Assembly (NCBI GenBank): GCA_000165345.1
Contig: CM000436.1
Coordinates: 448,001-512,000, forward strand
Length of the DNA stretch: 64,000 nt
Direction: 5' to 3'
A program made the position numbers and the translations under genes. Below are positions 1 through 64,000 of the stretch, one piece after another; the first letter of the stretch is position 1, and every line of letters begins with the position of its first letter. The notes beneath the pieces are model-generated. The model had not been told where the DNA came from. It was given only the letters and a program-made list of their open reading frames with translations, and made no database searches.

Positions 1-1026
1 CACTATAAGGTATTTAGAAGAAATTAAACTCTCTCTTAATAGTTTTCCTTTATTCAAATCTAAATCGTCATCATCAAATTGGGCTATCTCAATTTTTGTA
101 AATCTGAAACTTTTTATTGAAGAAAGACTATCATCTTTGAATTCATCTAGGTTGAAAGTTTCACCTAGACTTTGAGAAATATCAGGAACTGAAATCAAGT
201 CATTTAAAGTTAATCTCCTTCTTAAAAGTGGATAAATTGTATTCTTTTCAAAGGAACAAAAATCCGAGTCTTTTCTGGGCTCAACATCTACCACTATTGA
301 TTTAATATTTCTCAAAAAGAGAAGAATATCATGTACGAAAGTGTTACGAATTGCAGATAAAATTGATGAGAATTTCTGTTTCATGTTCTTCTCAAATGGA
401 AGATAGTGCAATGTTCCTAAGTTGCTTGAACTTTGGACAAATTTAGGCCCAAATTCAGATCTTATATTATCAAACCTCCAAGGAGTCCCATATAAACTAA
501 TATTTGAATGAATTGTTTTTACTACTTCTGGGAAATCTGACTCTTCTATCCATTTTGGTACAATATAACTCAATTCAATTTCTTCATCAGGTTTACTTGA
601 AAACTTTATAGAGTATCCACCACTAAATATACAAGGATTATCAGTTATTTTAAATATTGACCTATATCCAATACCTTTTTCTCCTGTAAAATATCTTGAT
701 TCTGAATTCTTTTTAGACGAATTTCCAATATCGCATACAGACTCGATATTTTCACGTGTCATCCCTTTTTCATTTATATGGAATACCAAACAATCCCATC
801 TTAACAATATGTAAACTTGAGGGATACCCTCACCTATTTCATTAAAATTAAAGTTAGAGTCATCTGCATTCTGAAGAAGCTCCAATAATACACGTCCAAA
901 AGATGAATAAAGTTCATTTGATAATATTCCTATTGACCTGTCTTGCCTGTCTCTTTGAGATTTATTTGAAACGAATAAGCTCTCTCTTATCTCTTGAATG
1001 TGCTTCTTTGTTTGTTCATTTTGCAT
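1..1026 (-). CDS. Sacsin-like GHKL/HATPase_c ATPase-domain protein; partial, with only the N-terminal ~342 codons inside the window and the C-terminus beyond position 1
   Basis: The reverse strand reads continuously from an ATG at 1026..1024 (MQNEQTKKHIQEIRE...) to the window edge. It contains the motif ...LELLQNADDS..., typical of the sacsin/Hsp90-like GHKL ATP-binding Bergerat fold. It is missing from the ORF track because no stop codon lies inside the window. Confidence 0.45.
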   Translation of the reverse strand, partial: MQNEQTKKHIQEIRESLFVSNKSQRDRQDRSIGILSNELYSSFGRVLLELLQNADDSNFNFNEIGEGIPQVYILLRWDCLVFHINEKGMTRENIESVCDIGNSSKKNSESRYFTGEKGIGYRSIFKITDNPCIFSGGYSIKFSSKPDEEIELSYIVPKWIEESDFPEVVKTIHSNISLYGTPWRFDNIRSEFGPKFVQSSSNLGTLHYLPFEKNMKQKFSSILSAIRNTFVHDILLFLRNIKSIVVDVEPRKDSDFCSFEKNTIYPLLRRRLTLNDLISVPDISQSLGETFNLDEFKDDSLSSIKSFRFTKIEIAQFDDDDLDLNKGKLLRESLISSKYLIV

Positions 1027-1663
1027 CTTATTTGGCTCCCATTATATTTTAGTAATTTCCCTATTATATTTAAGACCTATTTCAAAACTTCCAATTTTAC
1101 AGCTTATTATTTTATTTTTTTAATTAACTAATTTATAGCTAAAATATTACTACTTTATCTGATTTACTTTCCTGACAAAATTTATCTAATTATAAGAAAA
1201 TTAGTAGTTTCCACATAAAATAATATAATGCCAAATTTAAAGAAAATTTATTAAATTAAATATACAAATATATTTCCCTCCAAAATCAAGTTCAACAAAT
1301 TATTAAATTTCTCCATATTTTTTTTTCATAAACTTAATTGACTAAATACTGTACAAATCCTATTCCTTTCTTTCATAATAGCTTTATTTTTCATTCAATG
1401 TCGTCTTTCAGACTTTTATTACTATTCATGCTTTAAACCAGAAATATTCAATTAATAACAATTTACATGCAAACATTAACGTTAGAGGTTCTATTCCCAA
1501 AGGGGCAGCTTTTTTTTTAATTTAACAATAAACCTTTTAAGAAAAATCAAGGAGAATTTTGCATGCATGCAAAATTTCAATATAAATGAGAAATAATGAA
1601 ATAAAGAAATAAAGCATTAAAGAAAAGTAGAAATTATATATGAATTAGAAAAATTGACTTGAA

Positions 1664-61965: not shown

Positions 61966-63516
61966 TCAATTCAATAATTCCTTATTGTCTTCGTGGTATA
62001 TCTTGTCAGACAAGGGAAATTTAATTCTCTGCTTAAATATTTGAGCAATAATAGGAAACTCAAGAATATTCTTGGGTTTTCTTTCCATCCAAAATGAATG
62101 GAACTTTAGAAAAATAAATGAAAAGAGTTCACAAAATATAAAAAGCATATTCACATCATTTTCAGTCTTATAAAAGAATGGAACAATTCGATGGTCCCTT
62201 TGATTCAACCAATCTCTGAGCCAAGATGTAATATTGATTCCTGTGACTGCAAAAGAATACCAATATTTTGAATTACTTGATTCTCTATGAATCAATTTTG
62301 ATTCAAGTGGATGTGCTAAACTGAAATATAAAAGGCAAATGAGTGCAAGTATACCAACTCCTCTAAAGTCACTATATGGCTGATCACATCTTTGGAAGCC
62401 TAAAAGCTCCCATTTAACATCGGTTTCTTTTGAAAAATAGCATTCCCAAAGTGAGTTTAATAAATCATTATGACTCTGTTTTTCAGGATCAAAATTGATT
62501 TTTGCAAGTAAATTGACTAAATACCTTGATTTAGTTGCATTATGGATATATTTAAGGTTTAGCCTAAGTTTTTTTCGGAAGTTTATTAAATCAGTAATTC
62601 TACTCATTTTTACTTGAATAATAGTCTCAACACACTTATCAATTAAAGAATTATTAATATTACTCAACAATAAATCAGTAACAAGTCTTGGATCAGCTGA
62701 GTATATTTTTCTTGATTTTATTAGATATTGTTCGATATAATACGGATTAATTGGTTCAATATTAACAAGAAGTTCAATTTCACATGGTTTTTTAAAAACT
62801 TTTCGAGTTGATTTTACTATTTGTGATATTGGTTGTCTAAGAAATAAGTTTGGAACTGGAATATGATAATATTGTTCAGATAAAGCTATTGAAGCTCTTG
62901 TTTTTCTAATTGATGATTCACCAATTGAAAATTGTTTATTGTTTTGAAAAATTACCCATGGAAGAGATTTTGAAAATGTTATTCTTTTTGGACAACATCT
63001 ATTATTATTAGATTTTTGAAAATCATTATTAAGAAGTTTAATATTTTCTTGGGTATTAATTCTTGCATTATTATTAAGATATTCACTATTATAAAGAAAT
63101 TCATCAGAACAAATTATTTGAATCATATAATGAGCAGAACAATATTCATCATCTTTATTTAAAACAGGAATTTGTATTTGGTTAAAGAAATATCCTTCAT
63201 TCAAGTTAAAATCTTGTGGAATTGCTGATTCTGCTGAATGGATTTTTGTACTATATAATGAATTCTGATTATTTTGAAATTCACTCGTTATATCTTCTTC
63301 ATTATAATTTTCTTCATAAATATATGGTTTATTATTAAAAATTAATCTAATATTTGTTGGGATTATACCTCCAACCTCATAAGAAGCTAGAATTAAGCTA
63401 TTTCCATTGTTATTTCTACTCGTATCATCATCGTTACTTGTTTTATAGTCTAACCTATATATAGGTTTATTCAAGTCAAGGTTGACATTACCGTTATTTA
63501 CATCATCAAGTTTCAT
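61966..63516 (-). CDS. ELMO-domain protein (ELMOD-like, putative Arf/Arl GAP)
   Basis: WECYF...WELLGFQRCDQPYSDFRGVGILALICLLYF matches the ELMO/CED-12 core (WxxLGFQ...P.TDFRG.G.L.L..L.YF). The track start at 63528 is TTG; the first ATG is at 63516. Confidence 0.7.
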   Translation of the reverse strand: MKLDDVNNGNVNLDLNKPIYRLDYKTSNDDDTSRNNNGNSLILASYEVGGIIPTNIRLIFNNKPYIYEENYNEEDITSEFQNNQNSLYSTKIHSAESAIPQDFNLNEGYFFNQIQIPVLNKDDEYCSAHYMIQIICSDEFLYNSEYLNNNARINTQENIKLLNNDFQKSNNNRCCPKRITFSKSLPWVIFQNNKQFSIGESSIRKTRASIALSEQYYHIPVPNLFLRQPISQIVKSTRKVFKKPCEIELLVNIEPINPYYIEQYLIKSRKIYSADPRLVTDLLLSNINNSLIDKCVETIIQVKMSRITDLINFRKKLRLNLKYIHNATKSRYLVNLLAKINFDPEKQSHNDLLNSLWECYFSKETDVKWELLGFQRCDQPYSDFRGVGILALICLLYFSLAHPLESKLIHRESSNSKYWYSFAVTGINITSWLRDWLNQRDHRIVPFFYKTENDVNMLFIFCELFSFIFLKFHSFWMERKPKNILEFPIIAQIFKQRIKFPLSDKIYHEDNKELLN

Positions 63517-64000
63517 AATTAGGTTCAATTATTATTTAAAATTAAACCTACAGCTGCTGTGATCTTATTATGATCAAGAGTTGACAGTTAAATCAGTTTC
63601 ATTACCAAGTGTCTCAGTAATTCATATTATTTCGAGTACTCAGACTTGAATCTTGAAATTTGGTCTGGTGCAAAGGTATTATCCTATGCAATATTTTTCA
63701 AATTTTAAAGGATTTTTATTTTCTTTTTATGGGTATTTAATATTCAATTTCTGTATTAATCAAATTACTTCAAAAAACCCTTTAAAAATTATACCCGTAT
63801 TTATTTATTTTTCTTAAGCCTTACTCAAAAACCCGCCATTTTGTTGACATTTTCAATTACTATATTTATTTATTAAAAATATATTAAACTAAACACAAAA
63901 AAAAATGTTACACATACACTCAGGCGGCGCAAGTGGCGCCAAAAGTTTGTCTACAGGTGCATTTAAAAGAGAAATTATTTAAGAAGAAATACTCGATATT

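Follow-up and report, generated by a model that had tools for sequence, protein, structure and literature searches.

E2F-type and AP2-type boxes in the promoters of a Cryptosporidium parvum chromosome 8 segment that encodes a DP-type transcription factor

The promoters of a gene-dense segment of Cryptosporidium parvum chromosome 8 carry two kinds of boxes, the E2F-type TTGGCGCCAA and the AP2-type TGCATGCA, which are the two published promoter motifs of this parasite. It is very probable that the promoters are built from these two known motif families and are read by E2F/DP and ApiAP2 factors. The segment, here called the window, covers 64,000 nucleotides and has short intergenic promoters, with intergenic DNA making up 29% of it (18,741 bp). 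A preliminary description had ascribed it to a Cryptosporidium-type organism, and this is borne out, as three of its proteins match C. parvum Iowa II entries at 100% and the window runs colinear with a Cryptosporidium chromosome record of 1.34 Mb. The motif and DP findings are already described (Oberstaller 2013 and 2014, Li 2021, Xiao 2025 and a 2025 review). Of the intergenic regions scored, 19 include the 5' end of a gene and 10 are of the 3'/3' type. The upstream counts refer to 29 genes, see Table 1 for the individual sites.

Both box types are strongly over-represented. In dinucleotide shuffles of the whole window, 0.70 copies of GGCGCC and 0.61 of TGCATGCA are expected, while 19 and 22 are observed. 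Shuffling only the intergenic DNA gives 0.19 expected against 16 observed for GGCGCC, 0.11 against 20 for TGCATGCA and 0.48 against 14 for GGCGGG/CCCGCC, and for all three motifs none of 500 shuffles reached the observed count, or even one fifth of it. An unbiased k-mer ranking against a second-order Markov background returns as its top non-homopolymer words TGCATGCA (P 9e-35, the top 8-mer), GGCGCCAA (P 1e-28, forming one family with TTGGCGCC near the top) and GGCGGG (P 5e-12). The enrichment of an E2F-like G/C box and of GCATGC that had been claimed earlier is thus recovered both by the shuffles and by de novo k-mers. It could be argued that the over-representation is an artefact of composition or repeats, as the genome is AT-rich and both words are palindromes that include CpG or CA/TG steps, and overlapping (TGCA)n runs do supply a few of the TGCATGCA counts (at 1560, 8596, 28763 and 54055). 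However, the enrichment persists against dinucleotide-preserving shuffles and the Markov background alike, and the motifs are concentrated in 5' regions, with an intergenic density 13-24 times the genic one (12.9 times for GGCGCC, 24 times for TGCATGCA). Individual sites are also kept in C. felis and C. bovis amid diverged flanking DNA. An artefact is refuted by the shuffles and the conservation, and we give it practically no credence.

The symmetrised matrix of the 16 intergenic GGCGCC sites has the consensus TTTGGCGCCAAA, which matches the canonical 12-bp E2F/DP site (PMC3734150); T is found at positions -1, -2 and -3 in 21, 24 and 18 of 32 cases. The 14 intergenic GGCGGG sites likewise have a T-rich 5' flank. 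The published E2F upstream motif is given as 5'-TGGCGCCA-3', [C/G]GCGC[G/C] or GGCGGG, and the AP2_1 upstream motif as 5'-TGCATGCA-3' (PMC3734150; PMC12246861 Table 3). The boxes of the window have the cores [C/G]GCGC[G/C] or GGCGGG with A/T flanks ([A/T][C/G]GCGC[G/C][A/T]) and are over-represented upstream compared with the background. The same over-representation is seen for TGCATGCA / BGCATGCAH, identical in sequence to the ApiAP2 AP2_1 / TGCAT element (Oberstaller 2013, 2014). The motif strings of the preliminary description do not hold literally, as TTTGGCGCCAAA has no exact match in the whole window and exists as a symmetrised consensus only, and GGCGGGAAA has a single exact match, at 37082 within a coding region.

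The boxes are found mainly in front of genes. GGCGCC is present in 12 of the 19 regions with a gene 5' end compared with 2 of the 10 3'/3' regions, and some E2F-like box occurs in 16 of the 19, the remaining three having GCATGC. The earlier statement that nearly every 5' intergenic region has a box therefore agrees with the counts, as does its estimate of about 25 upstream instances, with approximately 30 E2F-like intergenic instances counted here. At the gene level, GGCGCC lies upstream of 21 of 29 genes and at least one motif class lies upstream of all 29. The distance to the nearest ATG is 100-300 nt for 10 of 14 GGCGCC sites (P=0.02), and GGCGCC is found in 9 of 10 divergent promoters versus 3 of 9 single-gene promoters (P=0.02). 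No E2F-like box was found in the RING / VPS9 divergent promoter. Outside the promoters, GGCGCC occurs at three sites in coding DNA (7866, 37076 and 42619) and two in convergent 3'/3' regions. The window can be seen as a local sample of the C. parvum E2F-like family (Bankier 2003; Mullapudi 2007; Oberstaller 2013, motifs 3 and 4), alike in core, T/A flanks, upstream over-representation and pervasiveness, to which it adds the 100-300 nt preference, the divergent-promoter preference and the two 3'/3' instances.

Table 1. E2F-type boxes, AP2-type boxes and the DP-type gene in the window.
Feature	Position	Strand	Context
E2F palindrome GTTGGCGCCAAA	3279..3290	.	PolD2 / SLD5 (replication genes) divergent promoter
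E2F palindrome	6918..6929	.	PNO1 / kinase divergent promoter
E2F palindrome	10912..10923	.	V-ATPase B / hyp498 divergent promoter
E2F palindrome	15937..15948	.	Fe-ADH / hyp195 divergent promoter
E2F palindrome	20426..20437	.	AdhE / ThiF divergent promoter, 187 nt upstream of ThiF
E2F palindrome TTTGGCGCCAAT	26729..26740	.	hyp1506 / hyp491 divergent promoter
E2F palindrome	33652..33663	.	421 nt upstream of hyp1123
E2F palindrome TTTGGCGCCCAA	37967..37978	.	convergent 3'/3' region, ~90 nt past hyp701 stop
E2F palindrome	40460..40471	.	abuts TGCATGCA; hyp701 / hyp480 divergent promoter
E2F palindrome GTTGGCGCCAAA	49922..49933	.	229 nt upstream of Pelota
E2F palindrome AAAGGCGCCAAA	51577..51588	.	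convergent 3'/3' region, 39 nt past Pelota stop
E2F palindrome	53538..53549	.	193 nt upstream of ribosomal protein S9 (RPS9)
E2F core GGCGCC	54109..54120	.	764 nt upstream of RPS9, 366 nt past DP stop
Double E2F-type box TTTGCCGCCGGCGCCTAA	55613..55630	.	258 nt upstream of DP ATG; DP / LisH-WD40 divergent promoter
E2F palindrome TTTGGCGCCAAT	56158..56169	.	108 nt upstream of LisH-WD40, 797 nt upstream of DP
GGCGGCGC plus GGCGCCAAA	63923..63943	.	407 nt upstream of ELMO gene
GGCGGG-type asymmetric box	3235..3240	+	PolD2 / SLD5 promoter
TTTTGGCGGGAA-type box	3579..3584	-	131 nt upstream of SLD5
ATTGGCGGGAA-type box	4955..4960	-	upstream of PRA1
TTTAGGCGGG box	6907..6912	-	PNO1 / kinase promoter
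TTTAGGCGGG box	10987..10992	+	V-ATPase B / hyp498 promoter
GGCGGG box	28752..28757	-	upstream of Ubl1240, 12 nt from TGCATGCATGCA
TTTAGGCGGG box	33670..33675	-	adjoins 33655 palindrome
GGCGGG box	40837..40842	-	hyp701 / hyp480 promoter
GCGGGAAA (canonical TTTCCCGC E2F site)	40868..40875	+	directly 5' of TGCATGCA at 40876
GTTGGCGGGAA box	40939..40944	+	hyp701 / hyp480 promoter
GGCGGG box	47082..47087	+	long SURF6-DEAD intergenic region
GGCGGG box	49033..49038	-	341 nt upstream of DEAD-box helicase gene
TTTAGGCGGGAA box	53780..53785	-	upstream of RPS9
GGCGGG box	53858..53863	+	upstream of RPS9
GGCGGG box	63832..63837	-	upstream of ELMO gene
TGCATGCATGCA (AP2_1-type box)	1560..1571	.	upstream of SACS-like gene
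TGCATGCATGCA	8596..8607	.	convergent region, kinase / V-ATPase B
TGCATGCA	13503..13510	.	157 nt upstream of SSNA1
TGCATGCA	15893..15900	.	46 nt from 15940 palindrome
TGCATGCA	20068..20075	.	180 nt upstream of AdhE
TGCATGCATGCA	28763..28774	.	upstream of Ubl1240
GCATGC	28796..28801	.	upstream of Ubl1240
TGCATGCA	37955..37962	.	convergent region, 14 nt from 37970 palindrome
TGCATGCA	40452..40459	.	10 nt from 40463 palindrome
TGCATGCA	40876..40883	.	abuts GCGGGAAA
GCATGC	43084..43089	.	upstream of hyp365
TGCATGCA	46865..46872	.	21 nt from GGCGCG at 46845
GCATGC	49903..49908	.	22 nt from 49925 palindrome
TGCATGCA	51604..51611	.	convergent region, 25 nt from 51580 palindrome
(TGCA)4 run, three overlapping TGCATGCA	54055..54070	.	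48-56 nt from 54112 box
TGCATGCA	54311..54318	.	between DP and RPS9
TGCATGCA	59446..59453	.	110 nt upstream of RING gene
TGCATGCA	59738..59745	.	RING / VPS9 divergent promoter
DP-type E2F/DP-family winged-helix transcription factor gene, 293 aa	54483..55364	-	Pfam PF02319, DP-2 similarity

The two motifs were earlier said to be paired, which is an overstatement, as their presence per region is independent: among 29 regions, seven have both motifs, seven the E2F box alone, seven GCATGC alone and eight neither (Fisher P=1.0). They lie close together only where both are present, and co-occurrence in a region is not above chance. A fixed grammar, i.e., an obligatory composite element in which the E2F box must pair with GCATGC, would explain why co-resident motifs are nearer than uniform placement predicts, with five palindromes within 50 bp of GCATGC against 1.4 expected (P about 0.005), and why two pairs abut (40452/40463 and 40868/40876). 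However, a shared preference for a narrow promoter zone explains this proximity equally well. The spacing also varies from 10 to 56 bp without a fixed phase, GCATGC is missing from half of the palindrome-bearing promoters, that of the DP gene included, and Li et al. (2021) found both motifs upstream of just 17 of 190 motif-bearing lncRNAs. Together with the independence per region, this makes an obligatory composite very improbable, and we regard the boxes as two separate motif families.

The window also contains a DP gene at 54483-55364 on the minus strand, as the preliminary description had placed it. Its product is identical to C. parvum Iowa II EAK89387.1 and matches Pfam E2F_TDP (PF02319) with an E-value of 7.3e-11 (42.1 bits, cut-off 25.7). 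The best solved relative is DP-2 (1cf7_B, 5.3e-9) rather than E2F-4 (1cf7_A, 0.88), with a winged-helix alignment that spans 82 residues. Within it, the DP signature NIRRRVYDVLNVL (residues 147-159) aligns to DP-2 and contains RRRVYD, so the RRXYD DNA-contact motif is present in its DP context (NIRRRVYDALNVL). Among six Cryptosporidium orthologues, residues 97-274 hardly vary, and the aligned orthologues, C. muris included, all have an identical DNA-binding domain. The gene is most likely cgd8_1850 / cpbgf_8001850; this tag is inferred from the chromosome and the subfamily, as C. parvum has two annotated DP genes and one of them, cgd8_1850, is likewise on chromosome 8 (bioRxiv 10.1101/2025.01.17.633476, Xiao 2025; PMC12246861, Gunasekera 2025 review, Table 5). 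The two DP genes of C. parvum are matched by two E2F genes, neither of which lies within the window.

Compared with the animal and plant E2F-DP system on TTTSSCGC (E2F4-DP2-DNA, 1CF7), the DP protein is alike in its winged helix and RRXYD motif. It differs in that the Pfam DP dimerisation / marked-box domain was not detected: PF08781 gives no match at E<=10 in either this protein or the C. muris orthologue, so heterodimerisation with E2F is assumed. A distant relative with 42% identity, P0009, does have this domain (5e-26). The C-terminal 100 residues are conserved, with an AlphaFold model pLDDT of only 37. Further differences are that no Rb-family partner is known in C. parvum (PMC3734150), that the fully palindromic form predominates in the window, and that the sites lie upstream of most genes, spanning every functional class, rather than of a cell-cycle subset as in the classical regulon.

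These differences bear on who reads the GC box. The box could be functional and bound by another factor, such as an uncharacterised ApiAP2, zinc-finger or Myb protein, with its E2F resemblance being coincidental. E2F/DP binding in Cryptosporidium is itself putative (PMC3734150), the DP protein is without a recognisable dimerisation domain, and the motif, upstream of 21/29 genes, is far more pervasive than the E2F sites of other eukaryotes. However, the T/A-flanked consensus fits the canonical E2F/DP site, and the entire winged helix, RRRVYD included, is intact and hardly varies across the genus. A protein-binding microarray (PBM) survey of C. parvum AP2 domains found TGCAT to be bound by AP2 domains and assigned the E2F motif to none of them (PMC4117751). 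Further, Cryptosporidium is reportedly the only apicomplexan genus that retained E2F/DP, and of all motifs over-represented upstream of its genes, the E2F motif is reported to be the most abundantly so (PMC4117751, PMC12246861). We therefore find another factor unlikely, and E2F/DP remains the preferred reader of the GC box.

Conservation was followed to other Cryptosporidium species. The same motif type is retained at three orthologous C. bovis promoters; the counterpart of the 26729..26740 region (hyp1506 / hyp491) has TTTGGCGCCAA, and the Ubl1240 orthologue likewise has TGCATGCATGCA upstream. The box in the promoter of the DP gene itself, pointed out in the preliminary description, is indeed there, and C. 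felis and C. bovis both retain it; in the alignment with these two species, the GCGCCGGCG-C core of the double box is the longest invariant block. For the gastric species (C. muris, C. andersoni, C. serpentis), the comparison covered 91 kb of mostly syntenic loci, of which 23.8 kb is intergenic. Neither GGCGCC nor TGCATGCA occurs in them, while about 20 and 26 would be expected in the intergenic part at the density of the window. Asymmetric half-sites, T-rich+GGCG[C/G], are however found upstream of genes in these loci, 14 compared with about 2.4 expected. It can be speculated, tentatively and with somewhat more doubt than confidence, that the palindromic TTGGCGCCAA and TGCATGCA vocabulary is a feature of the intestinal lineage (parvum/hominis, felis, bovis) and not of the whole genus. 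The absence from gastric syntenic loci may be a new observation.

We suggest the following model. The E2F-type GC box is either a palindrome of consensus TTTGGCGCCAAA or the asymmetric form TTT(A/G)GGCGGG(A); it typically precedes the nearest ATG by 100-300 nt, and divergent, i.e., bidirectional, promoters have it especially often. Its core would be recognised by E2F/DP winged-helix dimers through their RRXYD motifs, and the product of the DP gene described here would be one DP of those dimers. Both this binding and the activation of transcription by the boxes we infer from the sequence; the dimers may act as a broadly used, promoter-defining activator of housekeeping and early asexual genes. 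The palindromic TGCATGCA, or AP2_1, which several C. parvum ApiAP2 domains bind in PBMs, is the second element, at which ApiAP2 factors may add stage specificity. Published data are available for both elements. Genes of 163 of 200 co-expression clusters have an E2F motif upstream (PMC3734150, Oberstaller 2013). In sporozoites, ATAC-seq peaks are dominated by the E2F motif, more than half of them are bidirectional promoters, and AP2 motifs were not found in open chromatin (bioRxiv 10.1101/2025.01.17.633476, Xiao 2025), thus the TGCATGCA sites may be inactive at that stage. The conserved double box in its own promoter makes feedback on the DP gene plausible. Such autoregulation is already a published idea, the same authors having noted E2F motifs upstream of the E2F/DP genes and considered autoregulation possible.

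If the palindromic vocabulary is indeed restricted to the intestinal lineage, the E2F/DP and AP2 cis-elements would have been remodelled or expanded in a lineage-specific manner with the trans-factor unchanged, and a genome-wide absence in gastric species would mean rapid cis-regulatory turnover beneath an invariant DP protein. The idea of the E2F box has been in the literature since 2003-2013, with ATAC-seq support in 2025, and the window re-illustrates it. Much of Cryptosporidium transcription is believed to depend on the E2F box, which is therefore relevant to the study of this major cause of childhood diarrhoea and to the design of promoters for it.

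Both motif families are strongly over-represented in the window. The palindrome GGCGCC, the core of the E2F-type box, occurs 19 times against 0.70 expected, and the AP2_1-type box TGCATGCA, which contains GCATGC and is ascribed to ApiAP2 proteins, occurs 22 times against 0.61 expected. As a control, the intergenic DNA alone was compared with 500 shuffles preserving dinucleotides. Here the counts are 16 vs 0.19 for GGCGCC, 17 vs 0.06 for TTGGCGCC/GGCGCCAA, 14 vs 0.48 for GGCGGG/CCCGCC, 23 vs 1.08 for GCATGC and 20 vs 0.11 for TGCATGCA, and for each of the five motif classes none of the 500 shuffles matches the observed count. 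The intergenic density exceeds the genic one 13-fold for GGCGCC and 24-fold for TGCATGCA. A compositional artefact is excluded, and the motif observation of the preliminary description is confirmed. The de novo motif discovery proposed there as a check recovers both families: when every 6-, 7- and 8-mer is scored without prior hypothesis, with a second-order Markov model as background, the leading words are TGCATGCA, GGCGCCAA and sub-words of the two, and GGCGGG and poly-A come next.

The literal strings quoted in the preliminary description did not hold up, as TTTGGCGCCAAA has no exact match in the window and GGCGGGAAA has one, within coding DNA. Symmetrised, the 16 intergenic sites nevertheless give the consensus TTTGGCGCCAAA, and most GGCGGG sites have the form TTT(A/G)GGCGGG(A). 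GGCGCC is also found at three positions within coding DNA (7866, 37076 and 42619). Most of the 'E2F-like' SGCGCS matches in coding DNA come from a (GC)n run, GGCGCGCGCGCGCG, at 7886–7899 within a protein-kinase coding region. For other published C. parvum motifs (G-box, GCACAC, CAAT-box, GAGA and [A/C]AACTA), the intergenic density is at most about three times the genic one, on a small number of sites.

The window is AT-rich (G+C 26–38%) and its genes are eukaryotic, long, mostly intron-less and densely packed, including DNA polymerase delta subunit 2 (PolD2), GINS/SLD5, V-ATPase B, a bifunctional AdhE, Pelota, ribosomal protein S9 and an eIF4A-like DEAD protein. Its origin from Cryptosporidium, as suggested earlier from the promoter pattern, is established by three exact matches to C. 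parvum Iowa II proteins (EAK89379.1, EAK89373.1/XP_627069.1 and EAK89382.1) and by colinearity with a 1.34-Mb chromosome record; the C. hominis counterparts of the three proteins fall in the same clusters but are separate members of them. Gene calls on the colinear chromosome records give 29 genes, with 45.3 kb genic and 18.7 kb intergenic DNA. Scans of the window for tRNAs and Rfam families found no RNA genes, thus known ncRNAs do not account for the long intergenic regions. Two of these, 45995–47471 and 48693–50158, are exceptionally long, about 1.47 kb each; both are negative in these scans and contain motif clusters in their middle (46845/46866 and 49019–49038, respectively). In C. muris, an additional gene is called between Pelota and DEAD (17162–17844 of locus L016), for which tblastn with its ORF fragments found no credible orthologue in the window.

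The boxes are concentrated in 5' regions. Nineteen intergenic regions contain one or more gene 5' ends; the palindrome is present in 12 of them and some E2F-like box, i.e., including the asymmetric GGCGGG type, in 16, while the other three (1029–1663, 13210–13665 and 59338–60341) carry only GCATGC. The earlier statement that nearly every 5' intergenic region has such boxes stands. Counted by gene, GGCGCC lies upstream of 21 of 29, and every gene has one or more of the motif classes. In 10/14 cases the palindrome is 100–300 nt from the nearest ATG, with a median of 212 nt (P=0.02 versus uniform placement); no comparable distance preference is seen for GCATGC. Of the ten divergent promoters nine have the palindrome, whereas only three of the nine single-gene ones do (Fisher P=0.02); the frequency in divergent promoters is slightly above that predicted for two independent promoters (P=0.025). 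This bias is compatible with a single symmetric site acting in both directions. Examples of such divergent promoters are 3092–3714 and the promoter shared by the DP gene and its divergent neighbour LisH-WD40. The RING/VPS9 promoter (59338–60341) is the sole divergent promoter without any E2F-like box and has two TGCATGCA instead.

Seven of the ten convergent (3'/3') regions contain none of these motifs. The regions 37452–38062 and 51542–51953 each contain a tight pair of TGCATGCA and GGCGCC shortly past a stop codon. In 37452–38062 there is no sign of a missed gene, as all ORFs are at most 54 aa. Li et al. 2021 (PMC7840661) located these two motifs within 100 bp upstream of antisense lncRNAs, the start positions of which follow coding-gene 3' ends. 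The two pairs would most likely be explained as antisense lncRNA promoters.

Positions of the convergent motif sites and of the DP promoter in the window
Feature	Position	Remark
Convergent motif pair	37955–37978	39–90 nt past stop codon (range over listed sites)
Convergent motif pair	51573–51611	39–90 nt past stop codon (range over listed sites)
Additional convergent motif site	8596–8607	listed alongside the two pairs
DP / LisH-WD40 divergent promoter	55365–56273	

The preliminary description had joined the two motifs into a promoter grammar. Both are present in seven regions, only E2F in seven, only GCATGC in seven and neither in eight (Fisher P=1.0), i.e., co-occurrence at the level of regions is no different from chance and a strict two-motif grammar is rejected. 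What remains of the pairing is closeness where both are present: five palindromes lie within 50 bp of GCATGC, against 1.4 expected under uniform placement (P about 0.005). Such proximity could suggest that the E2F box and GCATGC form an obligatory composite element, but the motifs are independent between regions and spaced anywhere between 10 and 56 bp apart, which makes this unlikely. In the simplest reading, a shared preference for one narrow promoter zone accounts for the proximity.

The claim that a DP factor is encoded in the window is upheld. The gene at 54483–55364(-), probably cgd8_1850, encodes a 293-aa protein in which Pfam detects an E2F_TDP domain (7.3e-11). Among solved structures, the protein matches DP-2 in the E2F4-DP2-DNA complex (1cf7_B, 5e-9, 82 aligned residues including NIRRRVYDVLNVL), while E2F-4 reaches only 0.88. 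It is 42% identical across the DNA-binding domain to a protein bearing the Pfam DP domain, and sources label it either 'E2F like domain containing transcription factor' or 'DP transcription factor'. Residues 97–274 are nearly invariant across six Cryptosporidium orthologues ranging from C. parvum to C. muris, and the DNA-binding domain is the same in every aligned orthologue, C. muris included. Pfam does not detect PF08781, the canonical dimerisation domain of DP proteins, even at E<=10, yet the C-terminal 100 residues are conserved; the AlphaFold2 model, from a six-sequence alignment, is too poor (mean pLDDT 37) to judge a coiled coil or marked-box.

The box described earlier in front of the DP gene itself is present as a double box, TTTGCCGCCGGCGCCTAA, 258 nt 5' of the ATG; another palindrome is located 797 nt 5' of this ATG and 108 nt from LisH-WD40. 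Synteny at the locus is preserved in C. felis, C. bovis and C. muris, and when the three promoters containing it are aligned, the double box forms the longest invariant stretch, with the form AAAACCCACT..T.GGCGCCGGCG(G/C)CAAATATC in C. parvum and C. felis and GCGCCGGCGCC in C. bovis. C. bovis also retains the motif type at three further orthologous promoters. The C. felis locus (L011 1–8885) has a G+C of 53% overall and about 50% in intergenic DNA, vs about 33% in C. parvum, and keeps the double box and its flanks despite this.

Motifs, placement and DP gene are all already published, everything but the gastric-species comparison below, and the motifs in the window are like the published E2F and AP2 motifs of C. 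parvum. E2F motifs (TGGCGCCA, [C/G]GCGC[G/C], GGCGGG) are the commonest upstream motifs, in 163 of 200 co-expression clusters, and the AP2 motif TGCAT was reported beside them (Oberstaller 2013, PMC3734150). TGCAT is bound by several AP2 domains, and E2F/DP was argued to carry a disproportionate share of regulation (Oberstaller 2014, PMC4117751). ATAC-seq peaks of sporozoites are dominated by the E2F motif, and more than half of the peaks are bidirectional promoters (Xiao 2025, bioRxiv 10.1101/2025.01.17.633476). A 2025 review tabulates both motifs and the four E2F and DP factors (PMC12246861).

The interpretation in the preliminary description is supported. We consider it probable that E2F/DP is a general activator acting on the GC core, with ApiAP2 proteins acting on TGCATGCA for stage control. 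E2F/DP dimers would contact the core via RRXYD motifs in their winged helices and thereby define promoters, to which ApiAP2 proteins would add stage control. Binding by E2F is unproven, as emphasised by Oberstaller 2013; that a protein other than E2F/DP binds the GC box appears unlikely.

The gastric clade was sampled at orthologous or neighbouring loci of C. muris (L016, 20.8 kb), C. andersoni (L012, 24.5 kb) and C. serpentis (L014 and L015, 46 kb), in total 91 kb, mostly syntenic with the window, of which 23.8 kb is intergenic. Neither GGCGCC nor TGCATGCA occurs in these 91 kb, and GCATGC occurs only twice. At the densities of the window, 19.6 GGCGCC and 26.1 TGCATGCA are predicted in the intergenic part (Poisson P for absence 3e-9 and 5e-12), and de novo k-mers recover poly-A alone. 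The 5-mers GGCGC/GCGCC and GGCGG/CCGCC are found seven times each against about 1.2 expected (in total 14 vs about 2.4). All 14 half-sites lie 58–290 nt 5' of the nearest ATG and many have a T-rich flank; the asymmetric T-rich+GGCG[C/G] half-sites include those of the PolD2 and SLD5 promoters. C. felis is similar to C. parvum in motif content and C. bovis is intermediate.

The absence in the gastric loci is in some tension with PMC5146892, where the legend of Fig. S1 describes TGGCGCCA as dominant also in C. andersoni. Given this legend, the gastric sample may be atypical, or the difference between gastric and intestinal species may be quantitative. This gastric-versus-intestinal difference is the one lead that may go beyond known findings.
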